Assembly: GCA_026134085.1 (NCBI GenBank)
Contig: JAOQIN010000001.1
Coordinates: 21,344 to 85,343 of the forward strand
DNA: 64,000 nt
Direction: 5' to 3'
Source of the DNA: Candidatus Methanoxibalbensis ujae
GTDB lineage: Archaea > Halobacteriota > Syntropharchaeia > Alkanophagales > Methanospirareceae
Of this stretch, positions 25,679-56,650 are shown one piece after another; the first letter of the stretch is position 1; the number at the start of each line of letters is the position of its first letter. The position numbers and the translations under genes were made by a program. Under the pieces are notes generated by a model. The model was not told the DNA's origin, ran no database searches, and saw only the letters and a program-made list of their open reading frames with translations.

Positions 25679-25689
25679 ATGTGTATGAT

Positions 25690-25745
25690 TTGATTTCCTT
25701 TTTTTCTTTTTTGTTTTTGTTTTTTTTCTTTTTTGGGCTCGTGTA
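25690..25745 (+). terminator. Oligo-T terminator-like tract after the secreted protein gene
   Basis: The tract reads tttcctttttttcttttttgtttttgttttttttcttttttggg. Confidence 0.4.
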
Positions 25746-28649: not shown

Positions 28650-30255
28650 AATGGCAGATATATATGCGAATGCGAGGTCCACCACGGGAACATCCGTGAG
28701 AAGGAGAGATGTGAATGCGCTGAGCGGGATGTGTCCGATATGCGTGAAGGAGTGCGAGGTGCTCTGCGAAATTGGAAAGAGTGCGTTCAGGGGAAGAGAA
28801 GTATTGTATCCGGAGCCAGAGCAATTTGGATGGAGTACTGCTGCGTCGAACAAGGATTACGGACTCGATTGGTCCGACTTCAACATACTGTCAAGGTTGC
28901 GTGGCGCCGAGGGGATAGAGGAGAACCCTGATGTCGCACTTTTCCACAATGTGAACATTGAATCAAATATAGGAGGAATTCCGCTGAAAATACCTGTTGC
29001 AATAGGAGCATTCGGCTCAACAGATGTCGCAAAGAACAACTGGGAAGCGCTTGCGATTGGCGCAGCTCTCTCAGGAATAATCATTATCATAGGAGAGAAT
29101 GTATGTGGTGTCGACAGAAATTCAGTTTTCACTGATGGAAAGGTTGAGAGATCGCCTGAAATGGAGCGCAGGGTGAAATTATTCAGGGACTATTGGGATG
29201 GAAAATATGGAGATGTGGCAGTTCAGACAAATGTGGAGGATCAGAGATTTGGTGTTGACGAATATGTGGTGTCAAAGCTTGAGGTCAACATTGTTGAGCG
29301 TAAATGGGGACAGGGTGCAAAGGCAATAGGCGGGGAAATAAGAATTTCATCACTTGAAAGGGCGATTGAACTGAAGAAGCGTGGCTATTTAGTGTTGCCC
29401 GATCCTGAGGACCCTGTTGTGCAGAATGCATTCAGAGAAGGTCTTTTCAGGACATTTGAGAGGCATAGCAGGGTTGGATTTCCGAAAGAGGATTTTGTTG
29501 AAGATGTTGAGTGGCTGCGCAGCATAGGTGCGAAGTATGTGACAATAAAAACAGGTGCTTACCGCCCTGTTGATGTCGCATGGACAATGAAAATGGCATC
29601 AGAAGCCAGGGTTGACTACATCACATTTGACGGCGCAGGCGGCGGCACTGGAATGTCACCGGTTCCCATGATGAATGAGATGAGCACTCCCACAGTATAT
29701 TTAGAAGCGCAAATACTGAAATGCGCTCGCATTCTTGATAAAGCAGGGAGATATGTGCCTGATATAAGCATGGCGGGCGGTTTCATAAACGAAACGCAGA
29801 TATTCAAGGCGATAGCACTCAGTAATTTCAACGGAAACAACGGCAGAGGACCATATGTGAAAACGATAACAATGGCAAGATCCCCTCTGACGGCAGCGAT
29901 GAAGTCCCTTTACTTCTGTGAACTCGCGGAGAAGGGAAAATTGCCGCGAAATTTCGCATCCCTGTACGGAAATTCGCCTGAGAGGTTCTTCATAGCTGCT
30001 GAAGCGCTCAAAGCAAAATACGGAGATAAAGTGGGCGGAGAAATACCATGGTCGGCTGTCGGCGTTTACACCTATCTCTATGAACGCATAGGAATAGGAT
30101 TGAAACAGCTGCTCGCAGGAACAAGGAAATTCAAGCTTGAACTCATAGACAGAAGCGACATCGCAGCACTGACCAGAATAGCATCAGAAGTCACAGAAAT
30201 ACCGATGATACATGAGGTAGAAGCAGATCTGTTTGAAGAAATATTGCTGTCATAG
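28642..30255 (+). CDS. Glutamate synthase large-subunit FMN-binding domain protein (archaeal split GltB domain 2-like)
   Basis: It has FDGAGGGTGMSP (the glutamate synthase FMN/TIM-barrel signature GxDGGTGA) and an upstream Cys motif CPICVKECEVLCE. The size is 537 aa. Confidence 0.6.
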   Translation: MIEMADIYANARSTTGTSVRRRDVNALSGMCPICVKECEVLCEIGKSAFRGREVLYPEPEQFGWSTAASNKDYGLDWSDFNILSRLRGAEGIEENPDVALFHNVNIESNIGGIPLKIPVAIGAFGSTDVAKNNWEALAIGAALSGIIIIIGENVCGVDRNSVFTDGKVERSPEMERRVKLFRDYWDGKYGDVAVQTNVEDQRFGVDEYVVSKLEVNIVERKWGQGAKAIGGEIRISSLERAIELKKRGYLVLPDPEDPVVQNAFREGLFRTFERHSRVGFPKEDFVEDVEWLRSIGAKYVTIKTGAYRPVDVAWTMKMASEARVDYITFDGAGGGTGMSPVPMMNEMSTPTVYLEAQILKCARILDKAGRYVPDISMAGGFINETQIFKAIALSNFNGNNGRGPYVKTITMARSPLTAAMKSLYFCELAEKGKLPRNFASLYGNSPERFFIAAEALKAKYGDKVGGEIPWSAVGVYTYLYERIGIGLKQLLAGTRKFKLELIDRSDIAALTRIASEVTEIPMIHEVEADLFEEILLS

Positions 30256-30420
30256 GCTCTTCTCCATTTTCTTCTTTCTTTTTTGTTTCTTTTTGTTTTG
30301 TTTTGTTTTGTTTTTTCTTTTTTTTTTTGTTCTGTTCTGTTTCTTTGTCTTGTTTTATTTCGTCCTGTCCTGTTTCGTTTTGATTCGGTGAATTTGATTC
30401 GGTGAATAATTCAGTAAAAT
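30256..30420. repeat. Microsatellite region ((TTTTG)n, (GTTCT)n, (GTCCT)n, gattcggtgaat x2) in a convergent intergenic region
   Basis: Repeats are visible. The region probably also serves as a bidirectional oligo-T termination region. Confidence 0.65.
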
Positions 30421-36006: not shown

Positions 36007-37371
36007 TCAGGTCATGATGTGCAATGCAGCGAGTATGCAGAAGACACCGAACATGTCGGTGAGGCTGGTGACAAGCGGTATCGTGTCGTTGTCGGGGTCC
36101 AAACCGGCTTTGAATGAGAGAGCGGCGATGTAATAGGTTGCGATATTTATGAATGATACGCATAACAGTCCCGCGATGACAGTGATCATGATCATCTCTC
36201 CGAGAGAGCCGCTTTCAATGCATGCGAACAGCATTGATAGCCACGAGAGCGCGCCTACCAGGACGAAGAAGGAAGACAGCCCATATATCAAAGTGAAATC
36301 AGCAATGCTGCGCCTATCGGGAAGAAATCCAGGCTTTATCATGCCCACGTGCAGCATTGACGATATGCGTGCGCTCAGTATGCCGCCGAGCGCACCGCTC
36401 ACACCGAGAAAGGGAGGAATAACTGCAAGAACAGAGGGGTTTGAGATGAGATACTCCAATCTTGATTCAAGAAGTGTTCCCGTAAGCAGGCCTATTATCC
36501 CGCATATAAGTAGCACGGGATAACTTTCTCCAATTATACGACTTATTTCGGTGCGGAGCCCTTTGTATGTGAGTATGAGTGAAAGTGTTACAGAGAGTGC
36601 GGAGATGATCATGGCAATTGTTTCTCTGCTCTCAAGATGCAGTAAGATGTGCGCTGCGAGATATAATGAGGGTATTGTCGTCATATCTCCTGCGGAGGTG
36701 ATGAGCGGTGATGAGAAATTATCTATGTCCAATTTGCGCCGATATGCAAATATTGAGATTGCAACAGTTATTCCGAGAAGGAAAATTCCAGATAAAATGC
36801 CGCCTAACACAGAAATAAATATGAAAAGCCATACAGAAATGCTCTGAATGCCAAATATACCGGCGAAAATCTTCGCAATAATTCCCAAAATAACGGAGAA
36901 TGAAAGTGTCAATGTGATTGTTGACTTTATGTTGTTGTATAAAACATTATCCCTGAGGGAGGGAGTGAAAATACCGAGATGCATGGAGGTTCCAAGCCGG
37001 GATGCCATCGCTCCATACACATTGCCGCGCATATCGTTGGCAGGAGGGATCAGTATGAGCAATCCCGGCATCAATTTGAGCATTTCGGACATTGAGCTGA
37101 AAACAGTGCCTGCAATAATTCCTGATAGCGTGCAGAGAGAAAGAGATAATGAAGATTGAATGAAAATTTGAGCATTATCATGAAAATATGAACGAATATG
37201 ATGAGTCAGGAGGAGCAGAGCACGCATGCATGCTGATATCTCCGACAATATGCCGGTGATGATGTGTTGGATGCGCTGGAATGCGGTGTGTGTTGTATCT
37301 TCGGAGCAGTGTTCTTCTTTCACATCTCCCTCCTCTTTCATTTTCATCACCACCGAGACACACGACAGCAA
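36007..37371 (-). CDS. Polytopic membrane protein, MgtE-like divalent cation transporter TM domain (tandem), tentative
   Basis: It has about 10 TM helices. The acidic motifs PPANDMRGN and DPDNDTIPLVTSLTDMFG resemble MgtE/SLC41 transmembrane signatures. Confidence 0.35.
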   Translation of the reverse strand: MLSCVSVVMKMKEEGDVKEEHCSEDTTHTAFQRIQHIITGILSEISACMRALLLLTHHIRSYFHDNAQIFIQSSLSLSLCTLSGIIAGTVFSSMSEMLKLMPGLLILIPPANDMRGNVYGAMASRLGTSMHLGIFTPSLRDNVLYNNIKSTITLTLSFSVILGIIAKIFAGIFGIQSISVWLFIFISVLGGILSGIFLLGITVAISIFAYRRKLDIDNFSSPLITSAGDMTTIPSLYLAAHILLHLESRETIAMIISALSVTLSLILTYKGLRTEISRIIGESYPVLLICGIIGLLTGTLLESRLEYLISNPSVLAVIPPFLGVSGALGGILSARISSMLHVGMIKPGFLPDRRSIADFTLIYGLSSFFVLVGALSWLSMLFACIESGSLGEMIMITVIAGLLCVSFINIATYYIAALSFKAGLDPDNDTIPLVTSLTDMFGVFCILAALHIMT

Positions 37372-38230
37372 CGGCTCTCAGCAGCACTGCAGTGATTGTG
37401 CAAAGCGGAGTTTCAGGATCGCCTCCCACATCACTTTCTACCGCGGACATCTCACACTATCTGCTGCTTATTACAACCTCCTCCTGTTCCGATCAGAAGG
37501 ACGGCCCCCATCAACCCCTCTCAGTCGGGAACCTTCAAACCCTCTCCATTTAAAACTTACCACGTAAACCACGTAACGCCTCCTCACAAAGACATGAATC
37601 GCACCAGCCCCTTCTCCACCTTCACACAATCTTCCCCGCACCTAAGCGATGCAGACTTTATACAATGTTTATCAGGTCTTGCACATCTTTAAGAAACAAG
37701 CCAGCTCAGGATCCTGTCTCTCTGAAGCTGCAAATAGGTGACATTTTCCGCCATTGCACAATGGCAACAGCAATTCGAGCTATCACAGGCTTTTTTACTT
37801 TCAAACTTAAGATTGTGAATTGATCCATGTTTGCTATCCCCGCCATGTGAACTCCGCCTCCTTCACCTCTGAGTTGAAGAGCTTTCTGAAAGGGCGACAT
37901 CGCCGAGAGATTCCGCATACGGGGCATACGGAGCAGGGTGGAGCGAACTGCGTGAAGAGGTGAAAGCAAGCTTCCTCTTTCGTTTCAGAGTCAAGACTTG
38001 TCTTTCAGTAATGAACAGCTGATTTGCCAACTTTTAAGAGTAAAGCGATTCTTCCGAGATGAGAGGAGATACATTGCCGCAACTTATGGACACTTTTTTC
38101 CTCTCAATGCATTCAGTAACTCAAGCAATCCATTTCGCCATAGATAGTTGTTCAATTATTTATGTTGCTTGATGCTCGGACACATCGGATATGCCAGAGT
38201 ATATTTATATGAGAAGGAAAATTAAAGAGA

Positions 38231-38581
38231 TTGGAGGGTCAGCGGGCAATGTATGCGTTGACGGGAGATGTGCTTTTTGCGTCATTCCGTAGAGGTCTCA
38301 GGAACGGAAATTGGAAGAAGCTGAAAGCGAGTGAGAGGGCTTTTTTCAAGGCAGCGCTTTTCTATCTGAGGCGAGGCGGAAGGATTGTGAGCGTGTCTGT
38401 TTTGGAGAAGCTCCGTTTGCTCATAGAGGAATTGAATGAGACTAGAAGAATGAGGATATTTAGAAAGGGATTCGAGAAAGCGATTGAAATTTTGAACGCG
38501 TGCGAAAATTTTGCATGGTATCCTTATTTAAAGAAATGGCTAAAAGAACCTGATTATATATTCTGGCTCGGAACAATATAG
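38231..38581 (+). CDS. Hypothetical small basic protein
   Basis: It is 116 aa with no recognisable motif. It lies at the left edge of the island. Confidence 0.3.
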   Translation: MEGQRAMYALTGDVLFASFRRGLRNGNWKKLKASERAFFKAALFYLRRGGRIVSVSVLEKLRLLIEELNETRRMRIFRKGFEKAIEILNACENFAWYPYLKKWLKEPDYIFWLGTI

Positions 38582-38739
38582 AAAATTATACTCACGTGCC
38601 AAAAATCTGAGTAAGAGAGTCCGCTTGATGGGAGGTGAGAAGCATACAAAATGAGTACGCAATGCAGATATTGGGAGGATATACGCAATGCGTATATGAA
38701 CGAGTTATCTGCCATTCCACTCAATGGAGTTGTTAGCCT

Positions 38740-40068
38740 ATGGAACAAATTTTCATAGCTTGGGGACGTAATAAAAACTTGGCCATTAAAGTGGCAGAGA
38801 AATTGAAAGAAAAGGGGTATAATCCCATTGTAGGTGGTGATGAAAAGAACCCGAAGGAGAAAGATTATTACTTAGGCAAAGAAGTTCTTAACCAAATTAA
38901 AAAGGCATCTAAGGCTATTATTCTTGCTCAACAATTAAGACCTAACCTAATGTTCGAATTTGGAATATTATTTGAAAGACTAAACCCTGCATCAATCTTT
39001 ATTTTTTTAATTGGAATTAAAAGAAGTAAATTTTTTACAGAAGCTTCAGACCTCGCTGGCATTAGATGTTTTGAAGTCCCTACTGATAAAAAAGATATAG
39101 AGGAAAGAGCAAACTTTATTGTTGAGAAATTTGTTGAAAATTTAGTTCCTACAATTATTGATCCCGAAAGTTTATTTATCAAGTGGGATGACTGGAAAAA
39201 TAAATTTAATTCTATTAAAAAAGGTGAAGTAAAAGAAAGTCAAGTAGTTTTGAATCAAGTAATTTTACACAGTCTTCAACCAGCCTACTATTTTGGCGAA
39301 ATAAATTTTTTAAAAGATTTTGTGTCTAAATTAGAATTGGATTCATCTTTAAAAACAATCATACAATCAGCATGTGAATATTATATGCTAACTGAATTAC
39401 CAGATTCAAGGCCTGAATTGGGCGAATTGCTCCCGTTAAAAGAGAGTTTGAACAATCCTATATCTATCAAATCGACAATTAAAAACTGGGTAGAACTTGT
39501 AAGAAATGACTTCCTTGGTTTGGTTTATCGTAGAATGTCAGAATCTTTGAAAGAGCAAAAAATAAATTATCTCGAAAAATCTAAGAAAGCTTTTGAGAAT
39601 TCAATAAGATATCTTGAAAAAATCCCAGAAAAGAGAGCATGTTGGCATTTATGGAAAGGATATATTTATAGAAACCTTGGAAGAACATATTGTGAACTCA
39701 ACAATCGTGAGAAAGGTCTGGAATTTCTTAAGGAATCCCAAAAACATAGAAGAGAAGCTTATTCAGCGTTTAAAGCATTAAATGTTTCAGACATTGTCTT
39801 AAATCAGATATTTTTGGAGATCAAAATAGTGGATTTAGATATTATGAGATATAGCACTGAAGAATTAGAATCGAAAAAGCAAAAATTGACAGAAATTATA
39901 GAAGCATTAAAAGTCCAGGGAAAACTCATAGTGAGACCTCTAATTTTATGGAATAAAGTAATAGTTTTGGCTAAAGATGTGGCTGAGAGAGAAGCTAACT
40001 TGCAAGGTATATATAGAGACTTAGAGCAAATTGAAAATCACATAAGAAAGTTGAAAGGAGGCTCTTGA
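38740..40068 (+). CDS. Protein with N-terminal TIR/DUF4062-like flavodoxin-fold domain and C-terminal alpha-helical (TPR-like) domain
   Basis: The N-terminus has the pattern IFIAWG...LA..VAEKLKEKGY.....GG......VL..IKKASKAIILAQ...NLMFEFGILFERL. That is a beta-strand/helix alternation like TIR-family domains (VFISY...IVVLS..SxWCxxEL). The rest is helical with W/Y-rich repeats. It is my assignment from pattern only. Confidence 0.35.
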   Translation: MEQIFIAWGRNKNLAIKVAEKLKEKGYNPIVGGDEKNPKEKDYYLGKEVLNQIKKASKAIILAQQLRPNLMFEFGILFERLNPASIFIFLIGIKRSKFFTEASDLAGIRCFEVPTDKKDIEERANFIVEKFVENLVPTIIDPESLFIKWDDWKNKFNSIKKGEVKESQVVLNQVILHSLQPAYYFGEINFLKDFVSKLELDSSLKTIIQSACEYYMLTELPDSRPELGELLPLKESLNNPISIKSTIKNWVELVRNDFLGLVYRRMSESLKEQKINYLEKSKKAFENSIRYLEKIPEKRACWHLWKGYIYRNLGRTYCELNNREKGLEFLKESQKHRREAYSAFKALNVSDIVLNQIFLEIKIVDLDIMRYSTEELESKKQKLTEIIEALKVQGKLIVRPLILWNKVIVLAKDVAEREANLQGIYRDLEQIENHIRKLKGGS

Positions 40069-40727
40069 TGCCAAAAGTTAAAAGAATTAATTTTAACAAA
40101 CAGAATATCAAAGCTATAGCTTTGGACTTTGATGGAGTAATTGTTGACTCACAGGATTTACACCTCAAAGCTTGGATAGAGACTTTGAAAAAATACCGTA
40201 ATAATTTTAAAGTAAGTTTAAGAGACATTACTGGACTATCAGTGTCAGAATTTATTCAAAGACTGAATATTCCACCAGAAGAGGGAGTAAAAATGGCGGA
40301 ATCGAAAAGAAAATATGTTGTTCAACTTGCCAGAATACATCCTCCACCGTTGTATACAAATGTTATCGAAACTTTACAAATCCTATCTAACTATTATAAA
40401 CTTGCGCTTGTAACCTCATGTGAAACAGACTTAGTCTATTTTGTGTTGGAGTACTATAATTTGAAAAAATTGTTTGAGGTTCTCATCCTTGAGGGTGATT
40501 ATAATAAGCCCAAACCAGATCCGGAACCTTACTTAGAGTGTCTGAAAAGACTGGGACTAGATGCAAAATCTGTGATTGCTATAGAGGACTCTCCAACTGG
40601 AATAAAGTCAGCCAAAAAGGCAGGTCTATTTACAATAGCTATCTCTACTACATTTAATAAAACTCAGCTATTTGAGGCTGATATTATTATAACTAATTTT
40701 AAAGAGTTATTATGTTTAATCCCATAA
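40065..40727 (+). CDS. HAD-superfamily phosphatase (beta-PGM/CbbY-like subfamily IA)
   Basis: It has DFDGVIVDS (motif I, DxD), a T/S in motif II, and K...EDSPTGIKSAKKAG (motifs III/IV). Its start overlaps the upstream gene stop (ATGA). Confidence 0.7.
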   Translation: MMPKVKRINFNKQNIKAIALDFDGVIVDSQDLHLKAWIETLKKYRNNFKVSLRDITGLSVSEFIQRLNIPPEEGVKMAESKRKYVVQLARIHPPPLYTNVIETLQILSNYYKLALVTSCETDLVYFVLEYYNLKKLFEVLILEGDYNKPKPDPEPYLECLKRLGLDAKSVIAIEDSPTGIKSAKKAGLFTIAISTTFNKTQLFEADIIITNFKELLCLIP

Positions 40728-40860
40728 GGCATGGAACATCCCATAAGGCATGGAACGGCAGATAACAGCGGGTATGTGGTTCGCTTACGCTCACCCAAAC
40801 CCTTACTGGCTTCGCATACCCGCAAAACGTTAGGCGAAATGCCTTGATGGGGAGAATCTA
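40728..40860. repeat. Island repeat element copy A (contains internal direct repeat atcccataaggcatggaac x2; ends ...ctggcttcgcatacccgcaaaacGTTAGGCgaaatgcc)
   Basis: It is homologous to copies B-D and ends in a GTTRRRY-type motif about 26 nt before the next ATG. Confidence 0.55.
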
Positions 40861-41490
40861 ATGAAATCTTTTGTAGTTGAGCTGTGGTCGGGGATATTCA
40901 GCATACTGAGATGGATATCGCCTTTTCAGGTGATCCGTACTTTGATTCCAGCCATCAGAGGAAGTCATGGCTTTGTTGATGGATGGGTTTTAGGAAATTT
41001 ACTACTTTCAATTGTACTATTATTGATGTGTTCAGCTCCGAGTCTACATTGGTGGGAGGTTATCGCTATTTGTTATGGGATAATTCGAGTTTTCGAAGTC
41101 TTTATCTACCAAATTAACGTGCTGTTATTTGATGAGTATAGGGCAAGAAAGGCAGGAAAAGCTTATGCTCTACGAGGCTTTCGCCGCCTTGTGATCCTTC
41201 TGCTACATAATTATGCCGAGATTATTTTTTGGTTTGCTCTTTTTTATCGTAACTTAGACTGGGCGTTTGAGACGGGCAAAATCAACCTCAATTCATTTTC
41301 TGTATCTTTAAACTTTAGTTTTGTTACAATGACTACTTTTGGCTATTCTACTATCTTTCCCAAGGAAACTTTAGGGTACATTCTCACTCTTACTCAGTCA
41401 ATAATTGGTTTATTCATGGCGTTGTTGATTCTCGCAAGATTTATATCTTTAATCCCTGCCCCTCAAACCATGGATGAATTTGAGAAATGA
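40861..41490 (+). CDS. Two-TM ion-channel-like protein (K+ channel pore-like TTFGYS filter)
   Basis: The hydrophobic helices flank a pore-helix/filter-like segment VTMTTFGYSTIFP (compare T-[TV]-GYG). Confidence 0.45.
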   Translation: MKSFVVELWSGIFSILRWISPFQVIRTLIPAIRGSHGFVDGWVLGNLLLSIVLLLMCSAPSLHWWEVIAICYGIIRVFEVFIYQINVLLFDEYRARKAGKAYALRGFRRLVILLLHNYAEIIFWFALFYRNLDWAFETGKINLNSFSVSLNFSFVTMTTFGYSTIFPKETLGYILTLTQSIIGLFMALLILARFISLIPAPQTMDEFEK

Positions 41491-41606
41491 TTATTATTTC
41501 GTCTAACAGTATCTGGCTTCGGTGCTTCGCACCTCCGCCCAAATTCCTCGCTCGGAACTTCGGATATGCCCAGAACGTTAAGTGAAATTCGGCTCATGCG
41601 TTAAGA
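41491..41606. repeat. Island repeat element copy B (starts cgTCTAACag...; ...ctggcttcggtgcttcgc...ccgcccaaattcc...aacttcggatatgcccagaacGTTAAGTgaaattcgg)
   Basis: It is homologous to A, C and D. It has a 5' RYYYAAC-like motif and a 3' GTTRRRY-like motif. Confidence 0.55.
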
Positions 41607-41646
41607 ATAAAATATAACTATAATAATAATTAAATAATGATATAGT

Positions 41647-41871
41647 ATGCTCGTAACATTTGAGATATACAATGATGGTGAATACTGGTGTGCAAGAGGT
41701 ATAGGAGTGGATATATTCACACAAGGAAAAACACTTGATGAGTTGATGGAGAATATAAAAGAGGCTGTTGAAGTACATTATGGAGAATTATTGGAAAAAG
41801 GTGAAGATATAAGGATATTATCAATATCAGAAATAGAGGTGCATTCAACTGCCAAAGTTACCAGTCGTTAG
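41647..41871 (+). CDS. hicB: HicB-like antitoxin (UPF0150 family N-terminal domain)
   Basis: The segment FEIYNDGEYWCARGIGVDIFTQGKTLDELMENIKEAVEVHY matches the HicB/UPF0150 pattern (Y.a..pdlpG..s.G.T.eEa..n..EAi). Confidence 0.5.
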   Translation: MLVTFEIYNDGEYWCARGIGVDIFTQGKTLDELMENIKEAVEVHYGELLEKGEDIRILSISEIEVHSTAKVTSR

Positions 41872-41893
41872 TGGGGATAAACTAATCAAACTA

Positions 41894-42097
41894 TTGACCA
41901 GATTGGGATACGAAATAGTAAGACAGAAAGGGAGCCACGTGCGTTTAAGAAAGAAAACAGAAATAGGTGAGCATAATATAACTGTGCCCAAACACAAAGA
42001 AATTGCAAAAGGTACACTAAATGATATTCTATCAAAGGTGTCTCTATGGAACAACATATCCAAAGAGGAATTAGTCAAAATGTTATCAAAAATATGA
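41894..42097 (+). CDS. hicA: HicA-like mRNA interferase toxin (YcfA family)
   Basis: It has GSHVRLRK...HNITVPKHKEIAKGTLNDIL (the HicA GSH..L and TVP.H.EI..GTL motifs). The frame is open upstream (LPKLPVVSGDKLIKLL), so the true start may be a non-ATG codon near 41850 that overlaps the hicB end. Confidence 0.55.
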   Translation: MTRLGYEIVRQKGSHVRLRKKTEIGEHNITVPKHKEIAKGTLNDILSKVSLWNNISKEELVKMLSKI

Positions 42098-42099
42098 GA

Positions 42100-42270
42100 G
42101 GTGGATATATGACGCATGAGCTCTCGTAACCCTTCGGTTTCACCCCTCTCGGGGCCACTTAACAGGAGGATATGTGGCTTTTACAGAGCCTAAATTTGCT
42201 CTTGCAAGCAAACTTCACATATCCCCGGTTGTCCGAAATCCCGAACGCCGCTCTTAAGAGGTGAAATAAC
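42100..42270. repeat. Island repeat element copy C (contains aacaggaggatatgtggctt and ccaaatttgc...caaacttcacatatc)
   Basis: It is about 90 nt and homologous to copy D. Confidence 0.55.
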
Positions 42271-42501
42271 ATGAATGATAAAATTGCACCAAATATAATA
42301 GATAATAGCCCAAATAGAGAGTTAATCAGAGTATTGAAAGATCAATTAAAAAAATCAAAAGAGGCTAAATTTGCCATAGGATATTTCTTCCTGAGTGGAT
42401 TTTCTCTTGTTAAAGATGACTTTCCAGAAAATTATGAAAAGATACCATTTCTTAAAATTGTGATGGGAAATGAAACTACATATCCAACAAAAGAGGGGTG
42501 A
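42271..42501 (+). pseudogene. Fragment resembling the N-terminus of PLD-like/helicase-associated proteins
   Basis: It is 76 aa and ends abruptly. The motif AKFAIGYFFLSGFSLV resembles the I.I.sgYf..SG PLD-like N-terminal motif. Tentative. Confidence 0.25.
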
Positions 42502-43208
42502 GATGCTTGATTTTAAGGAAATAGAATCTGATTTGTTTACTGAGGTGGAGGAAGTTGAGAAGTTTATCTTTAACAATATTTCCCTGCGAGCATGGATTGA
42601 GGAAGGAAGGATTGAAAGACAGGAGAGATGGGAATATCCACCAAAGGCATTGAGAGAGGCTATAGTAAATGCAATTGTCCACAGGGATTATCGTATTCCC
42701 TCTAAGATACAGATAAGAATATTTGATGATAGAATCGAATTATAGAATCGAATTCTGGAATCTAGGAAGATTACCAGAAGGTTGGACTGTTGAAACCTTA
42801 AAAGAAGAGCATACATCGGAACCATTTAATCCACTGATTGCGAGAATTTTCTTCGGGGTAGGATATGTGGAAGAGGTTGGAACTGGAACGAATAAAATGA
42901 TAAGGTGGTGTAAAGAATGGGGTCTTCCAGAACCTGAATTTAAAATAAAATCAAACAACATAGTGGTTATATTTAGAAAATCAAAACTTACTGAGGAATA
43001 TCTAAACAATCTTGATCTTACAGAAAGAGAAAAGGAAATAATTCAATTTCTCAAAGAGAAAAAGAGGATCACCAGTGCTGATGTCCAGAAAAAGTATGAA
43101 GTAAGTAGAGATACAGCAAATAGATGGTTGAATAAGCTGCTTGGATTAAACCTAATAGAAAGAAAAGGGAGAGGGAAAGCAGTGTATTACATTTTAAAGG
43201 AAAAATGA
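42470..43208 (+). pseudogene. AlbA_2/HATPase_c_4-family regulator (RecG-C-terminal-like ATP-binding protein) disrupted by a 13-bp tandem duplication frameshift; N-terminally truncated
   Basis: Two overlapping ORFs (42470..42745 and 42723..43208) carry PPKALREAIVNAIVHRDY and ...IEFWNLGRLPEGWTVETLKEEHTSEPFNPLIARIFF...GTGTNKM...GLPEPEF. The DNA at about 42730-42755 reads atagaatcgaatt-atagaatcgaatt. Removing one copy restores the single frame RIEFWNLG. Confidence 0.55.
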
Positions 43209-43438
43209 TGCGTCAGATTTGCGTCAGATAACTACGACCGCTGGGCTGAGCTTTACTGGAAGAAGCAAATTGAAGGAAATTTAACAGAAGGAGAGCAAAA
43301 GGAACTTGAAAAACTGGAAAAAGAGAATATGAAAACCATAGAAGAAGTTTATAAATTACTCATAGAAGATAAAAAAATACAAAAACAAATAGAAAAAATA
43401 AAATCCCATGAATGGGTTAAAGTAATAGAGGGGGAAGG

Positions 43439-43759
43439 ATGAACGAAAAGGTAAAGAGGATATTAACAGAGGTCAAAAAGTATTTGATTAAGAACTATGG
43501 AGACAGGATAAGGCAGGTTATCCTTTATGGCTCTTATGCACGGGGAGATTACAATAAAGATTCCGATATTGATATATTGATTGTGGTGAGCGATGATATA
43601 AACCCTATTGAGGTTGAAGAATCCTTAAACGATTTACTTTTTGAAATCCTTCTTAATGAAAATGAACTTTGCTCAGTCAGGGCGATACCAGAAAAATTGT
43701 TTAAGGAATACAATTCTCCATTCCTTTTGAATGTAAAAGAAGAAGGTGTGATGATATGA
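43439..43759 (+). CDS. Minimal nucleotidyltransferase (MNT) antitoxin
   Basis: It has the GSYARGDYNKDSDIDILIV NTase motif and is 106 aa. Its stop overlaps the next ATG (ATGA). Confidence 0.7.
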   Translation: MNEKVKRILTEVKKYLIKNYGDRIRQVILYGSYARGDYNKDSDIDILIVVSDDINPIEVEESLNDLLFEILLNENELCSVRAIPEKLFKEYNSPFLLNVKEEGVMI

Positions 43760-44137
43760 AAAAAGAAATAAAAGACCTTCTTGAGAAAGCTGATAGATAC
43801 TTAAGAAGTGCAGAACTATTATTAAAAGATGGCGACTTCGATTCCTGTGCATCAAGATGTTACTATGCCATGTTTTACTCAGCAGAAGCTATATTGCTTA
43901 CAAACGATTTGAAGGCATCTTCTCATGAGTAATAAGTTTATTCGGCATTTTATCAAAACAGGGAAATTGGATAAAGAATTGGGGAAGGCATTGAGAAGAG
44001 CATATGACTTAAGACAGAGGGGAGATTATGAAACCGGTTTTATGGTAACAGAGGAAGAGGCGAGAAAACTCCTGGAAATAGCAAAGAACTTTGTAAAAGT
44101 AGTCTTAGATTATTTGAGTGAGCGAACTGACTCATAG
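43756..44137 (+). pseudogene. HEPN toxin gene split by a +1 frameshift (cognate of the MNT)
   Basis: The N-terminal half 43756..43932 reads MKKEIKDLLEKADRYLRSAELLLKDGDFDSCASRCYYAMFYSAEAILLTNDLKASSHE*. The C-terminal half 43925..44137 in another frame reads ...FIKTGKLDKELGKALRRAYDLRQRGDYE. Together they reconstruct a canonical HEPN with its R-x4-6-Y motif. Confidence 0.55.
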
Positions 44138-44139
44138 TA

Positions 44140-44310
44140 ATAGAGTAGAGGGAGGAATATGAGCGGGGTTCGGGACTCTCCGCTTCCTTCGCTCGCTTCG
44201 GTGCTTTTGCACTCGGACAACAGGAGGATATGTGGCTTCGCCTTGCTCTGCCCAAATTTGCCTACGGCAAACTTCACATATCAAACGTTAGGCGACATGC
44301 AGAAATAGAA
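44140..44310. repeat. Island repeat element copy D (aacaggaggatatgtggcttcgcc...cccaaatttgcc...caaacttcacatatcaaacGTTAGGCgacatgc)
   Basis: It is homologous to A, B and C and ends in GTTAGGC. Confidence 0.55.
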
Positions 44311-44349
44311 AAGTAATTCAAAAAAAGAAATTAAAAAGTATACGATAAC

Positions 44350-44480
44350 AGATAAAAAATTGTACTTTATGGCACATATGCGAGAGGAGATGCCACAAAA
44401 GACTCAGACATAGATTTACTCATCGTTCCTGAAGGAGAAGTGATCTCAGGAGAAGAGACTGACACCGGGAGAAGAGATTG
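44350..44480 (+). pseudogene. Degenerate nucleotidyltransferase (MNT) remnant
   Basis: One frame reads ...IVLYGTYARGDATKDSDIDLLIVPEGEV... with no proper start and a stop. It is the remnant of a further cassette. Confidence 0.4.
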
Positions 44481-44671
44481 ACATGATGATGGACATAGTC
44501 ACAGAGATGAACCTATATGGTGTGTTACTGTTTATCCGAATCCAGCAAAGGAGAAAAGGATGTTATGAAATTGTTATGAAATATTGCAGTATAGCTCAAT
44601 AAATTCCCGAACGGATGCCTGAAGCAGGATTATTTGCACGGGCACTTTGCCTTTTGGGAAAGGAAATATGT

Positions 44672-47600
44672 TTATTCTCTCAAAATTTCCTCATATTTCT
44701 TCTTCCAAGCCTCCACTTCCTCTTTCGTCACGACATCTATGGAACCGCCCTGAAATTCGCCTTCAACGACTCCTATTTTTTCCTCCATCCACCCCTCAAC
44801 CTCCAGAAGCGCCGCCCTCAAGCCATCAATAACATCTTCAGATGCTTTCCACAGCCCTCTTTCATATGCCTCAATCAACCTTCTGCCGATCTCTTCAAGA
44901 GCCCAGGGATTTTCACCCTCAAAAAACTTTCGCATATTCTTATCAAGAACGAAAGTGCGGGCGATTTCATCAAAGATCCAATCACTCACTTCCTCTGTTG
45001 ATGCTTCCCATCCGTAAACTCTGCCTATTCTTTTTGATATTTCGCTTGCTCCGCTGTATCCGTGCTTTTTCATACCCTCTATCCATTTGGGATTCAGCAG
45101 TTTTGCGCGCACCACTCTCCTTATCTCCGAAGCAAGTGTTCTGACCTCAACATTATCAGAGCGCGTGTCTCCGTAGAGGGCGATCACATCTTTTCCCGAA
45201 ATCTCGCGAGCAGCAGCTGTGAGACCACCATGTGTGCTGAAGTAGCAGCAGCATCCGAGAATGTCGTATTCGTCTGTTGTTGTCTTGTTGAATGTTACAG
45301 AAACCGTTTTTAGCTGCGATAAGAGAGATTTGTGAGCTTTTATACCGAATTTCCTGTCACCGTAAGCGTAGCCGTTCCAGTATATGAATATCTCTGTAAG
45401 GTCCTTCTGCGTGTTCCATGCAGATGCATATACAGCGAGATTCACACCGCTGCCATATGTTCCTGGTTTTGATGAGAATATGCGTGCATGAGTGTCTTCA
45501 CATTTGTTTTCGTTCTCAATTGCGTGTTTTCTCAGGAAATTAAGCGAAGTTGGTTCGTCAAGAGATGAAACCTCCCTGAATGCGCGGTCGAGGAGCTCAA
45601 TGCAGTTGTAGAAGCAGTCTCTTATGATTGCGCTCACACGCACAGTCACATCTATGCGCGGTCTTCCAAGAGTTTCAGCGGGAATTATCCTGAAATCAAC
45701 CACACGACCGTCAGCATCCCAGACAGGTTCAACACCTATGAGATACATTATCTGAGCGAGCTGCTCTCCATCAGCCCACATTATATCTGATGCCATCCAG
45801 TACATGGCCACATTCTCCGGAAATTCCCCCTTTTCCTCCTCATATCTGCGCAACATCGCATCAGCAAGCTTCTTGCCGACTTCCCATGCGGCCTTTGTGG
45901 GTATTTTGAACGGGTCAAGCGAGTAGAAATTGCGACCTGTCGGCAGGATATCTGTTTTTCCTTTTGTTATAAGGCCTGAGGCACCCGGCTCTATGTATCC
46001 CGCATCAAATCCGTGCATAAGAGCACCCATTTCGTCTGTCGCATCCAATCTCGCTGCTATCTCCCTCACAGCATCTCTCAGCTCGGAGAACTCCGCTTCC
46101 ATGCTCTTTGCCGCGATTTTGAGAGCCTCATCCTCATGCTCCTCGCAGTCCTCGCAGGAGCGCAACGCAGCGGTGTCACCATCATCGCTCAAAAATCCGT
46201 GCAGGATTTTTCTTGCTGTGCTGTCAATGAACGCGTTGCTGTCACGATGCTCCTCTGACGCCTGCGCATTCATTTTTGCATTTGCCTTCACATTTACACG
46301 CTGAAGAAGTTTGCGCACGGCTTCTCTGAATTTCTGTCGCAGTACGGCGTATATGAAGTTCTCTTTCTGCGCTCCTTCAGGAGTCTCGCCGAACACATGC
46401 ATGCCTTCAGGAATCTGCGAGTCGTATATCTGAGACAAAGCCTCATGAACAGCATTCAGAAAATCATTGAAATCCTCATATACACGGATTTCATCGTATA
46501 TGCGGGTATTGCGGATCATATCCATGATCTGATTTCGCAGCGCATGAGCTCTCTCGGTGTTCTTTTGATTTTGAATTCTGCGATATTCATCTATTAAATC
46601 ATCAAGCGCTTTGAGATCCCCATACAAGCCGCTTTCAGTGAGAACAGCCTGAAGATGGTCTATGAGTGTTGCATAGCTGCGTCTCTTTGCTATTGTGCCT
46701 TCGGGAGGGTTGTCCGCGTTGTAGATGTAGAGATGAGGGACATCACCTATTGCGATATCGGGAAAACAGCACTCTGATAGGCCCACAGATTTTCCGGGAA
46801 GAAATTCAAGATTTCCATGCGTGCCAACATGCACAATCACATCAGCGCCGAATATGCGATCAATGTAATGATAGGTGGCGAGATACTGATGCGTCGGTGG
46901 TGTTTCCGGGTCATGAAGGATTTTGCACACATGCCCATCGCATCTCGCACCGGCACATCCTCTCTTTGGCTGCACGCACACGATTGCATTTCCATATCTG
47001 ATGCCTGTTATCACTATTTTTCCGTCATACACCATGGCATTACCCGGCGGCCTTCCCCAGACATCGCATACTTTCTTCCGCACCTCTTCATCCAAACTGT
47101 TGAACCAGCGCTCATATTCCTCACCGCTCAGATACAGTGCGCCTCCTTTTGCAACAATCTCATCCACAGTTGTCCATCTGAACTCTGATATTGCTTTTCT
47201 CCGCATTATCTCATCAATCAACGCCTTTCCATCCTCAGGCGGTTCTTCAATCGCATAACCCTCATCACGCAATCTTTTGAGAATGCGAGATACGCTCTCA
47301 AGCGCGTCCAGATGAGATGCGCTTCCCACAGTCGCCTCAACAGATGCACATGGCTTGTTATGCAGTATGAACGCAACCTTTCGCTCTGATTTGGGCTTCA
47401 TGCGAAGCGCTATCCACTTATTCACTCGCCGCACAACCTTCCTCACACGCTCCTCCAGAGGCACATGCTCAGTTGCTGCTGTCGCCGACTGTGCGGACGA
47501 TGAAGCTTTCACACCTGCGACGAGAGGCTCTATAAGACCTTCAAACTCCGGCATAGCGACACTCCATCCGACCTCGGCAGCGCTGAGACCGTGAGAATCG

Positions 47601-48445
47601 CCACGCCAATCACTCTCAGTTTTGTGATAAAGGATCAGCGGATGAAACACGGGCACATCAACCTTCTTCAGAGTGCTCACTCCATTTTCGGATGCAGCAA
47701 AAACAGGCTGTAAATTCACGATCGCATCAACATGGCCCATGAAAAACTCTCTTATGACATCCACACCCGTCTTCGCACCAGCATCTCTGTCTCCCATTCC
47801 CATGCTGAACACAGGAATCACACCGGTTCCGCTGCGCTCAAACTCGCGTATCAGTGCATCAACCACAGAAAGATCTCCGTTCAACCAGTATGTGCGATAG
47901 AAAAGTATGCCAACCATCGGACGACGATCATGACTCCCGAAATGCTGAAGATCATACCACTTCAGATAAGAAGCAACATCATCAAACACGCACTCCGCAT
48001 CTGGATGATAAATGCCCTGCCACGGATATTCCTTTGGAGGCTCGTACGGGACTTCAGCGCCTGTAAGCGTGTGCATTATGAACTTCAGCATGTTGACAAC
48101 ATTCTCATAGCCGCCGTATGTGAAATACGCGTTCGCCCTCAAAACAACTTCAGGCGGAACATTTGAGAGAGACATGTCCAAATTGTATCCAAGCGATATC
48201 ACAGGCTTATCTTTCCTCGGAAAATCACCCATCCATTCATGCTCACTCATCCATTCATGCGAGGGATGCAATATGATTATGTCGGCATCCTCAAGCGATT
48301 TCAGACATTCATCACGCCTCCCGGCATCCTTCAGATCATCATGCGTCCATAAAAGCAGATCAATCCCCAGATCCTCACATGCCCTCCTGAGAAGTCCCAC
48401 ATCACTGCTCCACACAACAGATCCTATCTTAACCATGACGCACAC
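44672..48445 (-). CDS. cobN: CobN/Mg-chelatase-family large subunit (cobaltochelatase CobN-like)
   Basis: It is 1257 aa with CobN-family length and motifs throughout. The identification rests on overall pattern. Confidence 0.7.
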   Translation of the reverse strand: MCVMVKIGSVVWSSDVGLLRRACEDLGIDLLLWTHDDLKDAGRRDECLKSLEDADIIILHPSHEWMSEHEWMGDFPRKDKPVISLGYNLDMSLSNVPPEVVLRANAYFTYGGYENVVNMLKFIMHTLTGAEVPYEPPKEYPWQGIYHPDAECVFDDVASYLKWYDLQHFGSHDRRPMVGILFYRTYWLNGDLSVVDALIREFERSGTGVIPVFSMGMGDRDAGAKTGVDVIREFFMGHVDAIVNLQPVFAASENGVSTLKKVDVPVFHPLILYHKTESDWRGDSHGLSAAEVGWSVAMPEFEGLIEPLVAGVKASSSAQSATAATEHVPLEERVRKVVRRVNKWIALRMKPKSERKVAFILHNKPCASVEATVGSASHLDALESVSRILKRLRDEGYAIEEPPEDGKALIDEIMRRKAISEFRWTTVDEIVAKGGALYLSGEEYERWFNSLDEEVRKKVCDVWGRPPGNAMVYDGKIVITGIRYGNAIVCVQPKRGCAGARCDGHVCKILHDPETPPTHQYLATYHYIDRIFGADVIVHVGTHGNLEFLPGKSVGLSECCFPDIAIGDVPHLYIYNADNPPEGTIAKRRSYATLIDHLQAVLTESGLYGDLKALDDLIDEYRRIQNQKNTERAHALRNQIMDMIRNTRIYDEIRVYEDFNDFLNAVHEALSQIYDSQIPEGMHVFGETPEGAQKENFIYAVLRQKFREAVRKLLQRVNVKANAKMNAQASEEHRDSNAFIDSTARKILHGFLSDDGDTAALRSCEDCEEHEDEALKIAAKSMEAEFSELRDAVREIAARLDATDEMGALMHGFDAGYIEPGASGLITKGKTDILPTGRNFYSLDPFKIPTKAAWEVGKKLADAMLRRYEEEKGEFPENVAMYWMASDIMWADGEQLAQIMYLIGVEPVWDADGRVVDFRIIPAETLGRPRIDVTVRVSAIIRDCFYNCIELLDRAFREVSSLDEPTSLNFLRKHAIENENKCEDTHARIFSSKPGTYGSGVNLAVYASAWNTQKDLTEIFIYWNGYAYGDRKFGIKAHKSLLSQLKTVSVTFNKTTTDEYDILGCCCYFSTHGGLTAAAREISGKDVIALYGDTRSDNVEVRTLASEIRRVVRAKLLNPKWIEGMKKHGYSGASEISKRIGRVYGWEASTEEVSDWIFDEIARTFVLDKNMRKFFEGENPWALEEIGRRLIEAYERGLWKASEDVIDGLRAALLEVEGWMEEKIGVVEGEFQGGSIDVVTKEEVEAWKKKYEEILRE

Positions 48446-56419: not shown

Positions 56420-56508
56420 TGCGCCGGCCGGGACTCGAACCCGGGTTAGAGGCTTTTTGCCCCGCAGAGGATGGCAAGCCTCTGTGATAACCACTACACT
56501 ACCGGCGC
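56420..56508 (-). tRNA. tRNA gene with anticodon-loop intron, probably tRNA-Gly(GCC)
   Basis: The reverse complement reads GCGCCGG-TA-GTG-AGTGGTTAT-CAC-A-GAGGC-TTGCCA-[intron ~17 nt TCCTCTGCGGGGCAAAA]-A-GCCTC-TAAC-CCGGG-TTCGAGT-CCCGG-CCGGCGC-A. The acceptor and T arms are perfect. Its 88-nt length implies an intron at the canonical 37/38 position. Confidence 0.6.
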
Positions 56509-56650
56509 CTCTCTTTTCTGTTTTTTATTTTTTTGTTTTTCTTTTTTTTGTTTTTATTTTTTTGTTTTTGCTTTTGTTGTTTTTGTTGTTTTTGTCTTTA
56601 TTTCTTATTTGCTTCTGATTTGCTTTTGATCATGATCCTGCATGAATGTC

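Follow-up and report, generated by a model that had tools for sequence, protein, structure and literature searches.

The domain specific to integron integrases (IntI) reads the extrahelical bases of folded attC sites and is held to have turned an Xer-like enzyme into a cassette-capturing machine. Canonical attC sites are 55-141 nt long and variable in their terminal structure; they have inverted R'' (RYYYAAC) and R' (GTTRRRY) boxes, cross over between G and TT, and carry two or three conserved extrahelical bases on the bottom strand. Archaeal integron cassette arrays and CALINs were reported by Ghaly et al. 2022 (PMC9668308), with canonical integrons and CALINs, one IntI included, found in ANME-1 MAGs and with toxin-antitoxin (TA) and defence genes as typical array cargo. 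Here, four repeats in a 64-kb stretch of DNA (from now on referred to as the window) from an ANME-1-related archaeon are identified as recombination sites belonging to an integron-like array of gene cassettes, a system known in kind, including in ANME-1, and seemingly undescribed in its variant. Like integron arrays and CALINs, it contains tandem, co-oriented and mostly promoterless cassettes with TA and defence cargo, each closed by an imperfect hairpin of 76-83 nt that carries AAC and GTT boxes and a probable G|TT crossover. Further shared features are an attI beside the integrase gene, favoured folding of the bottom strand and a location on an archaeal chromosome between core genes. We hold with good confidence that an integron-type array explains the locus as a whole.

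Alignment, nhmmer and a family covariance model bear out four homologous elements where the initial annotation had placed them, and the sequence blocks it quoted as shared are real. Their cores of about 80 nt each lie at 40760-40835, 41501-41583, 42157-42234 and 44215-44293 (sites A to D; these and all features below are on the plus strand unless otherwise indicated). E-values against the family profile range from 5e-12 to 2e-20 (nhmmer), and the covariance model matched exactly these four in the window at E <= 5e-12, with no further family site in the 64 kb at E <= 1. The core conserved among A-D, from a 7-nt 5' box through a 7-nt 3' box, measures about 76-83 nt and is shorter than the spans originally assigned; the longer spans of C and D are due to an extra structured 5' extension of about 60 nt. 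Site A (40760-40835) follows a tandem duplication at 40719-40756 and has the 5' box CAGATAAC, the L stem GCGGGTATG/CATACCCGC and the 3' box GTTAGGC; its cmsearch score is 51.9 bits (E 2e-12). Site B (41501-41583; 51.8 bits) begins with GTCTAAC, as had been reported, ends in GTTAAGT and is without the 5' extension. Site C (42100-42234; 50.3 bits) consists of an extension at 42100-42156, alignable with that of other family members, and the core at 42157-42234 with the 3' box GTTGTCC, while site D (44159-44293; 65.4 bits, E 2e-16) combines an extension at 44159-44214 with the core at 44215-44293 and again ends in GTTAGGC. The GTTRRRY endings proposed earlier are therefore present in A, B and D, but C does not fit. 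Across the family, AAC and GTT are near-invariant and the RRRY/RYYY portion of the boxes often departs (GTTGTCC, GTTATAC, GTTATCG). Core length varies from 63 to 105 nt, and with the 5' extension many sites reach about 150-170 nt.

The array probably occupies 38.2-44.6 kb of the window as a chromosomal integron-type gene-cassette array of this Syntropharchaeia archaeon, in the proposed order recombinase-gene relic, attI-like site, four complete cassettes ending in sites A-D and a truncated fifth cassette. It lies in a low-GC island (about 38000-44600; 30-39% GC vs 45-50% in the flanks) between mgtE and cobN and, in this genome, is a decaying, integrase-less island. Cassette boundaries were set from the G|TT positions. 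Cassette 1 (38705-40829, ending in site A) encodes a 442-aa TIR-domain protein (38740-40068, PF10137) and a HAD hydrolase (40065-40727, PF13419), and an identical 2139-bp contig is present in run SRR21418557. Cassette 2 (40830-41577, ending in site B) encodes a membrane protein of 209 aa that contains an ion-channel domain (40861-41490, PF07885). Cassette 3 (41578-42228, ending in site C) carries a HicB (41647-41871)/HicA (41894-42097) TA pair (PF15919, PF07927). This HicBA cassette is 91% identical to positions 3155-3815 of another locus (L076) that has the same platform (88%) and different neighbours, a pattern which by sequence comparison suggests cassette turnover. Cassette 4 (42229-44287, ending in site D) contains, by Pfam, a split AlbA_2/HATPase_c_4 regulator, an MNT nucleotidyltransferase (43439-43759) and a stop-split HEPN gene, with an R''-like relic (CAGATAAC) at 43225-43232; it is decayed and possibly represents fused cassettes. 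The cassette 5 relic (44288-44600) holds a degraded nucleotidyltransferase gene, is about 72% identical to the MNT cassette at locus L043 and shares its start (TTAGGCGACATGCAGAAA), and cmsearch detected no terminal site in it. The array ends against cobN (44672-48445, minus strand), on the 3' side of that gene. Intervals of 0.65-2.1 kb separate sites A-D, and the 64 kb hold no recombinase ORF, an arrangement that amounts to a CALIN (at least two attC sites less than 4 kb apart and no intI nearby) only if the sites are counted as attC-type.

Each predicted cassette begins with TT right after the G of the preceding site and ends in its own site, whose 5' box pairs with the first bases of the same cassette. 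Specifically, each 5' box (ending in AAC) is the reverse complement of the sequence following GTT in the preceding site, over 8-12 nt. From A to B, GTTAGGCGAAAT matches the reverse complement of ATTTCGTCTAAC at 11/12 positions; from B to C, GTTAAGTG is the reverse complement of CACTTAAC (8/8); and from C to D, GTTGTCCGA is that of TCGGACAAC (9/9), with the longer stretch TCCCGAACGCCGCTC of C pairing with GAGCGGGGTTCGGGA of D at 14/15. In 34 unique adjacent pairs at other loci, post-GTT identity at 7 positions is 4.56 vs 3.15 +/- 0.21 after shuffling (0/10,000). About one third of adjacent pairs do not follow this rule, and at L012 only the outer stem is kept; most of the failing pairs are more than 1.5 kb apart, so that an intermediate site may have been missed. 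A crossover at or within GTT yields such pairing, and the box complementarity can thus be read as the footprint of inserted circular cassettes, which would place the crossover at this position.

A fifth site (38655-38711) and, just upstream of it, a relic of about 60 nt from the 3' end of an integrase gene had been overlooked in the initial annotation. The fifth site is an attI-like primary site consisting of an imperfect palindrome (ATATACGCA-A-TGCGTATAT), the 6-nt spacer GAACGA and G|TT, with the G at 38704. The relic (38580-38654) corresponds to a frameshifted tyrosine-recombinase 3' end (IYTHV at 38586-38597, SPLD) whose nucleotide sequence is 72-73% identical to where the integrase genes of L089 and L054 end; at the protein level, tblastn with eight family integrases found no integrase remnant in the window. 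Further upstream, a 50-nt block (38224-38272) shows 85-90% blastn identity to L084, L089, L030, L062 and L057, where it lies beside degraded integrase genes and, in L084 and L089, adjoins the C-terminal third of the integrase ORF. A 116-aa ORF (38231-38581) with no Pfam match sits where the integrase gene would be, and L077 and L076 share 86-88% identity with the stretch 38345-38689. No integrase ORF was detected in the window by Pfam on about 40 ORFs, phmmer or tblastn with the eight family integrases, in agreement with the earlier statement that it holds no intI. Compared with L089, L054 and L084, the attI of the window is conserved through AACGAG|TTA and divergent beyond. Its GTTATCTGCC is the reverse complement of GGCAGATAAC in site A at 10/10 positions (15/16 if extended), and this attI-to-first-site complementarity is kept in seven of eight loci with five different sequences. 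The same attI layout follows intact integrases elsewhere, about 100 nt past the integrase stop. Because the attI-like site directly follows a recombinase-gene relic, we interpret the locus as an integron platform without its former integrase. The recombinase gene has been deleted in the window, which would leave the local array frozen unless a recombinase copy acts in trans.

The predicted fold, which is better on the bottom strand and is based on covariation, consists of an R stem, an asymmetric internal loop (5 nt vs 1 nt), an L stem of 11-12 bp and a conserved three-way junction. Covariation and complementarity suggest that many sites also bear a 5' extension of two small hairpins and an outer stem, whose longest complementary run is 7.57 vs 5.11 +/- 0.19 in shuffled sequences. 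Pairing in 49 bottom strands extends to 93.3% of cells vs 80.0% after shuffling (0/500), and 135 cells carry double changes vs 48 (0/500), a covariation result that fits single-stranded DNA hairpins, cruciforms or RNA structure alike; slid controls have 19-48% of cells paired. In an L stem of 10 pairs, 8 show compensatory changes. A G.T wobble, equivalent to an A.C mismatch on the top strand, is kept in 47 of the 49 bottom strands. Reconstituted sites gain 4-9 kcal/mol and a closing stem of 8-12 bp, with the bottom strand of site A reaching -25.4 kcal/mol compared with -16.1 in the array. No extrahelical bases are conserved across the family: one bulged T is confined to the GGAGGATATGTG subtype, and the GCGGACATACG/CGTATGTCCGC and GAGCGTATCTG/CAGATACGCTC subtypes have stems without interruption. 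The attC-like bulged hairpins anticipated earlier are thus supported by covariation as imperfect hairpins, but not in respect of conserved extrahelical bases. In contrast to the sites of integron arrays, those described here have a 1-nt vs 5-nt spacer, a conserved three-way junction where canonical attC has a variable loop and often a 5' extension of about 70 nt with two hairpins and an outer stem. The VCRs of Vibrio cholerae are likewise attC-type sites with highly conserved sequence within and between arrays, chromosomal, sedentary and associated with TA cassettes; however, they belong to one genus, whereas the present site type occurs in many archaeal and bacterial phyla and differs in structure.

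Two other readings of the elements can be considered in light of this fold. The elements could instead be structured RNA motifs (terminators, sRNAs or stabilisers of 3' UTRs) or dispersed repeats of REP/MITE type with no part in cassette recombination: they are intergenic, GC-rich and hairpin-forming, lie 26-64 nt ahead of the next ORF and carry an SD-ATG-like AGGAGGATATG, and their top strand can pair in an alternative way that uses G.U pairs. However, cassette-wise complementarity and the divergence at attI would not be expected of either, the conserved wobble lies on the strand antisense to the genes, the reading frame is broken by indels, no Rfam family was matched and neither terminal inverted repeats, target duplications nor T-tract terminators were seen, making this explanation extremely improbable. 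Alternatively, recombination could take place on duplex DNA as in Xer/dif or pdif modules, with the L and R boxes as duplex binding sites and the hairpins as a by-product of their palindromes. The attI does resemble a duplex half-site (L'-spacer-R'), and the linked recombinase passes the XerA model NF040815 (261 bits, cut-off 220) and is devoid of the domain with which classical IntI handles folded DNA. Yet compensatory changes maintain L''/L' complementarity across a 45-nt three-way junction that itself covaries, the strand asymmetry of the G.T wobble points to single-strand folding and the sites are in direct orientation, unlike those of pdif modules. We therefore regard duplex recombination as very unlikely.

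The enzyme acting on the sites in an integron-type array is likely a Xer/IntI-like tyrosine recombinase of about 345 aa, whose gene lies just upstream of attI on the same strand in intact arrays elsewhere. Same-strand site arrays lie directly downstream in all six independent integrase contexts (among them L092 with 5 sites, L096 from Thermodesulforhabdus norvegica, L098/99, L100 and L101/102), and when metagenome loci were collected with nothing but the site motif, 6-7 of the 76 contained fragments of the recombinase family. Synteny thus argues for a link between this family and the sites. Many copies are frameshifted or truncated, and such frequent pseudogenisation makes the recombinase unlike an essential resolvase. 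Similar to XerA/XerCD, it has the two-domain fold of core-binding and catalytic domains (4A8E, 5HXY) and passes the NCBIfam XerA model, but attI and a cassette array, not a single dif site, always come after it, and it has an extra N-terminal domain. This domain is predicted as an alpha/beta fold of about 65 aa (residues ~7-66, pLDDT ~90). The recombinase is 34% identical to IntI1, a match that extends to the C-terminal RSPLD tail, the catalytic R..HxxR..Y set of IntI1 and VchIntIA is conserved and the best PDB match is VchIntIA (2A3V; sequence E 2e-46, Foldseek E 3e-16). On the other hand, the TIGR02249 score of 240 is under the cut-off of 265, the recombinase gene is co-oriented with the cassettes and 28 residues stand in place of 70 in IntI4 (about 42 fewer), so that the additional domain, the binder of extrahelical bases, is absent. 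Of the marks of a complete integron, attI next to an integrase is present, while an intI with the IntI-specific domain is not.

It is also conceivable that the locus is an ordinary integron CALIN, in which a canonical IntI encoded elsewhere acts on a divergent attC type and the recombinase without additional domain is a bystander. The occurrence of canonical integrons, CALINs and one IntI in ANME-1 MAGs (PMC9668308), the layout, GTT crossover, 76-83-nt sites and TA/defence cargo, and the PDB match to VchIntIA all fit such a view. Nonetheless, a canonical IntI is absent from the window and from about 100 loci, the recombinase family recurs always upstream, on the same strand and followed by a conserved attI, and the extrahelical bases read by the IntI domain are not conserved. 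In addition, a home-made covariance model of canonical attC, built from aadA7 and nine archaeal attCs validated in PMC9668308, gave no match at E <= 10 in the window and nine loci; with filters off it returned noise and matched none of more than 25 sites. A canonical IntI acting from elsewhere is consequently improbable. As for the initial proposal of attC-like boundaries in a CALIN or a novel repeat system, cassette-wise box complementarity and covarying imperfect hairpins uphold the former, but the retained attI-like site and integrase relic speak against a bare CALIN, and novelty is partly right because neither the sites nor the recombinase family linked to them is canonical.

We lean towards a sister integron lineage missed by standard tools, in which an N-terminally extended Xer/IntI-like recombinase without the additional domain captures cassettes at attI via a folded site that is larger and of a different build. 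Judging from sequence, a complete platform of recombinase, attI and arrays bearing the G|TT footprint appears to function with neither the IntI-specific domain nor conserved extrahelical bases. If so, it would offer a natural comparator for the origin of integrons and could serve to test in nature whether hairpin-site recombination requires the additional domain, and IntegronFinder-type surveys would miss part of the CALIN and unannotated cassette pool in anaerobic sediments. The same site type is found in ANME-1, Archaeoglobi, Thermoplasmata, DPANN and Nitrososphaerota MAGs as well as in bacterial MAGs, and is nearly identical over at least 8 archaeal and several bacterial lineages, with many of these hosts assigned by MAG binning. 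If the platform works in this way, the spread would point to a common cross-domain pool of defence and TA cassettes, and the system may be an overlooked sister system common to archaea and bacteria; under the sister-lineage reading, the near identity of the site type would imply recent cross-domain cassette traffic. An intact recombinase-headed array is also present in the bacterial isolate Thermodesulforhabdus norvegica, a cultured organism that makes the system experimentally accessible.

The island of low GC content at window positions 38-44.6 kb (30-39% against 45-50% in the flanks) is bordered by two minus-strand genes, mgtE (36007-37371) and cobN (44672-48445). The window encodes the archaeal genes TiaS, PAN, FrhB, HMG-CoA reductase, Thi4 and an archaeosortase-like protein, with a PAN identical to that of MAG GCA_029934595.1 and next related to Methanophagales/Methanospirareceae proteins (72-74%), which identifies the host as a member of Syntropharchaeia related to ANME-1. 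Exact-protein look-ups for two window proteins gave no record. The four homologous intergenic elements proposed in the initial annotation, A-D, were recovered by alignment and by a profile of family members (E 5e-12 to 2e-20). A covariance model searched against the 64-kb window matched exactly these four and nothing further at E <= 1, placing the site cores at 40760-40835 (A), 41501-41583 (B), 42157-42234 (C) and 44215-44293 (D). Elements C and D are longer because both bear a structured 5' extension. No Rfam family was found for A-D at gathering or E-value thresholds. The elements lack terminal inverted repeats and target duplications and always lie at cassette ends, which speaks against a MITE or IS. 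They were also considered as coding sequence on account of their MWL/MSG mini-ORFs; this reading was rejected, as the frame is shifted between copies by indels that are not multiples of 3, in agreement with what had been remarked for the MWL mini-ORFs. A sigma-70 promoter and terminator scan stayed at chance level, the sigma-70 scan being inapplicable to archaea. Directly before site A, a tandem duplication of CATCCCATAAGGCATGGAA (two copies, 40719-40756) includes CCCATAAGGCAT, which is complementary to ATGCCTTGATGGG just past the GTT of the same site.

In every element the 5' box ends in AAC and the 3' box begins with GTT. The 5' box does not complement the element's own 3' box but that of the element before it: B's GTTAAGTG and C's CACTTAAC are complementary at 8/8 positions, C's GTTGTCCGA and D's TCGGACAAC at 9/9 and A's GTTAGGCGAAAT and B's ATTTCGTCTAAC at 11/12. 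An upstream GTTATCTGCC was predicted from A's GGCAGATAAC and found at 38704. Insertion of circular cassettes by crossover at G|TT would produce this complementarity, with each inserted cassette opening with the retained TT.. and closing with its own site as far as the G. When the excised form was rebuilt by joining the 5' part of each site to the TT.. of the preceding site, sites A-D gained a closing stem of 8-12 bp; bottom-strand folding energies were -25.4, -18.7, -20.2 and -18.5 kcal/mol in the rebuilt form and -16.1, -14.4, -15.0 and -11.8 kcal/mol in the array. Outside the window, the 7 positions after GTT match the next 5' box with a mean of 4.56 in 34 unique adjacent pairs, against 3.15 +/- 0.21 for shuffled partners, and 0 of 10,000 shuffles reach the observed value. 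Pairs failing this rule are mostly more than 1.5 kb apart, and an intervening site may have been missed.

The sequence upstream of cassette 1 resembles the end of an integrase gene. At two other family loci (L089, L054), the 3' end of a tyrosine-recombinase gene and the ~70 nt after it match positions 38580-38718 at 72-73% identity. Across the window, L089, L054 and L084 the alignment is kept through ..AACGAG|TTA and diverges beyond (GTTATCTGCC in the window, GTTAGGCGTAAT in L089, GTTAGCAGAAAT in L054 and GTTGTCCGAAAT in L084), and 38655-38711 can therefore be regarded as an attI-like primary site. A frameshifted relic of an integrase C-terminus (..IYTHV.., ..SPLD..) lies at 38586-38650. At the protein level, tblastn found no integrase remnant in the window, and Pfam, phmmer and tblastn were all negative for an integrase, in line with the absence of intI noted from the start. 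Where the integrase gene would be, there is an ORF of 116 aa, a layout common to L076 and L077 (86-88% identity). In intact systems, attI lies ~100 nt past the integrase stop codon and consists of a pair of imperfect palindromes with L-box-like arms, a spacer of 4-6 nt and G|TT. In 7/8 loci, complementarity was seen between the bases that follow GTT in attI and the 5' box of the site detected first, with five different sequences among them (GTTAGGCG, GTTGTATGC, GTTAAAC, GTTATCTGCC and GTTGTCCGA). A 50-nt block at window 38224-38272 shares 85-90% identity with five other loci, in each case at a breakpoint within a degraded integrase gene or next to one, and may thus be the end of an insertion or deletion event.

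Fragments of one recombinase family occur in 6-7 of 76 metagenome loci, all on the strand of the sites. Candidates were located by phmmer/BLAST across all loci with an IntI1 probe, which served only for this purpose, and Pfam, NCBIfam and PDB were used to check them. Intact members (P0001, P0002, P0078 and others) have ~345 aa, and 4,295 homologues were found at E < 1e-20. The proteins pass the NCBIfam XerA model (261 bits, cut-off 220) and do not reach the integron-integrase model (240 bits against 265, the match falling in two stretches). Among PDB entries they are closest to VchIntIA (E 2e-46; Foldseek E 3e-16). The family has 28 residues where IntI4 has 70, and so the IntI-specific additional domain is missing. 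An extra N-terminal domain at residues ~7-66 is predicted to adopt a beta-beta-alpha-beta-beta-alpha-beta arrangement (pLDDT ~90); a whole-chain Foldseek search did not resolve this domain. In 6/6 independent genomic contexts the gene is followed by attI and family-model sites on the same strand, as in L092 (five sites), L096 (Thermodesulforhabdus norvegica GCA_900114975.1), L098/L099, L100 (a Methanotrichaceae MAG, three sites) and L101/L102. The recombinase family is linked to the site arrays by synteny.

Covariation was analyzed in 49 non-redundant bottom strands, of which many are neighbours of motif-selected copies and hence unconstrained by the search. RNAalifold returned a three-way junction formed by an L stem of 10 pairs and two hairpins. 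In this fold 93.3% of cells are paired, compared with 80.0% in shuffles, and 135 cells are changed on both sides, compared with 48; 0 of 500 shuffles reach the observed values, and slid controls pair 19-48% of cells. The L-stem subtypes are plainly compensatory (GGATATGTG/CACATATCC, GCGGACATACG/CGTATGTCCGC, GAGCGTATCTG/CAGATACGCTC and GCGGGTATG/CATACCCGC). One pair is G.T in 47/49 bottom strands, that is, A.C on the top strand, and for the window sites the bottom strand is more stable in 8/8 comparisons; both agree with bottom-strand folding, as in integrons. A competing pairing, obtained with RNAalifold from a top-strand MAFFT alignment of motif-selected copies in place of the L stem, was superseded by the unbiased bottom-strand set. 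The alternative top-strand pairing GGATATGTGGC/GCCCAAATTT, which competes with the L stem and contains G.U pairs in 13/16 copies, might disfavour top-strand folding or act in mRNA. In hybrid sites (L015 6823-6909 and others) the 5' and 3' L arms belong to different subtypes and pairing is lost, which suggests recombination inside the conserved three-way junction.

The imperfect hairpin anticipated in the initial annotation is thus present and supported by covariation, whereas the extrahelical base expected with it, a bulged T, is limited to one subtype, unlike in canonical attCs. Family sites further differ from canonical attCs by an asymmetric R/L-stem loop (5 nt versus 1 nt), a conserved rather than variable terminal structure and, in most cases, a ~70-nt 5' extension, which canonical attCs lack. 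This extension, found in the window at 42100-42156 (C) and 44159-44214 (D) and also across L002-L091, consists in order of a variable GC-rich segment, ACTCT, hairpin 1, hairpin 2 and the 5' box, with both hairpins covarying. Its variable segment pairs with the start of its own cassette, 10-40 nt past the GTT of the preceding site. Exact complementarity extends over 7.57 nt on average in the longest run, against 5.11 +/- 0.19 in shuffles, with a maximum of 16 nt. An example from the window is TCCCGAACGCCGCTC of C, which pairs with GAGCGGGGTTCGGGA of D at 14/15 positions. The extension may be an arm-type site for the N-terminal domain of the recombinase.

The exact site 20-mer AACAGGAGGATATGTGGCTT is present in 14 GTDB species genomes and 76 metagenome contigs, and IMG/VR contained no match to it. 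The archaeal genomes belong to Aenigmatarchaeota, Baldrarchaeota, Iainarchaeum, Archaeoglobi (two), ANME-1/Methanophagales (three), Thermoplasmata and Nitrososphaerota, the bacterial ones to Thermotogaceae, a deltaproteobacterium and two (possibly three) unclassified bacterial MAGs. Most loci carry arrays of 2-5 sites.

Ghaly et al. 2022 (PMC9668308) reported integrons and CALINs in Archaea, with ANME-1 and Archaeoglobi MAGs among the hosts, so a cassette array in an archaeon is not in itself new. In that survey, the IntI-specific domain was obligatory for integrase calls, and the nine archaeal attCs tested were all of the canonical xxxTAAC-AAnTC-.. type; the family-site motifs are absent from the portion of its supplements searched. 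A canonical covariance model built from these nine attCs and attCaadA7 had no hit at E <= 10 on any of the more than 25 family sites searched and, with filters off, gave only noise in the window, a failure that is indicative rather than final because the model is small, home-made and not that of IntegronFinder. Smyshlyaev et al. draw no link between such proteins and arrays. Searching the literature for an integron integrase without the domain, or for an archaeal system resembling integrons, returned PMC9668308 only, and no description of the present system was found in the literature searched, an absence that does not prove novelty. The integron-like reading of the array is supported by the G|TT box complementarity, the covarying folded sites and the attI-like site. 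Judged from these sequence features, the locus appears to be an integron-type cassette array with its integrase deleted, and the system would work like an integron. It stands apart from the canonical integron family in several respects: the IntI domain is missing, extrahelical bases are not conserved and the canonical attC model does not detect the sites. We lean slightly towards the view that the system is a separate sister lineage of integrons that has been overlooked and spans Archaea and Bacteria.

The HicBA cassette of the window has a counterpart with 91% identity in L076, where the same platform (88%) is combined with other cassettes on both sides of HicBA. The truncated cassette 5 is a decayed homologue of the L043 MNT cassette, with identical first bases. 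Cassette 1 (38740-40727) encodes a protein of 442 aa, whose N-terminal TIR domain is of the CAP12/Pycsar type, and a HAD hydrolase whose ORF overlaps the end of the TIR-protein ORF; the pair may be a two-gene defence module. Cassette 4 contains pseudogenes (42470-43208, 43756-44137), with a frameshift dividing an AlbA_2/HATPase_c_4 regulator and a stop interrupting a HEPN gene. Between them, at 43208-43232, a duplicated TGCGTCAGAT is followed by CAGATAAC with a candidate relic box at 43225-43232, possibly the relic of a lost site at which two cassettes fused. Elsewhere, L098 and L099 have the integrase and the first four cassette genes in common, and a 3.3-kb insert including a DDE transposase lies within the array of one contig.

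In the remainder of the window, tandem repeats at 1982-2052 and 3330-3381 (14-nt TCGCATCGTGGGAT, five copies; 9-nt AGGGTCCAT, about six) are located within or close to the radical-SAM and TiaS ORFs. Long T/G-rich low-complexity tracts occur at 25680-25743, 30247-30379, 56492-56633 and 60634-60736, mostly near ORF ends. A tRNA match on the minus strand at 56420-56508 spans 89 nt for a model of 71 positions, and the gene therefore probably contains an intron.
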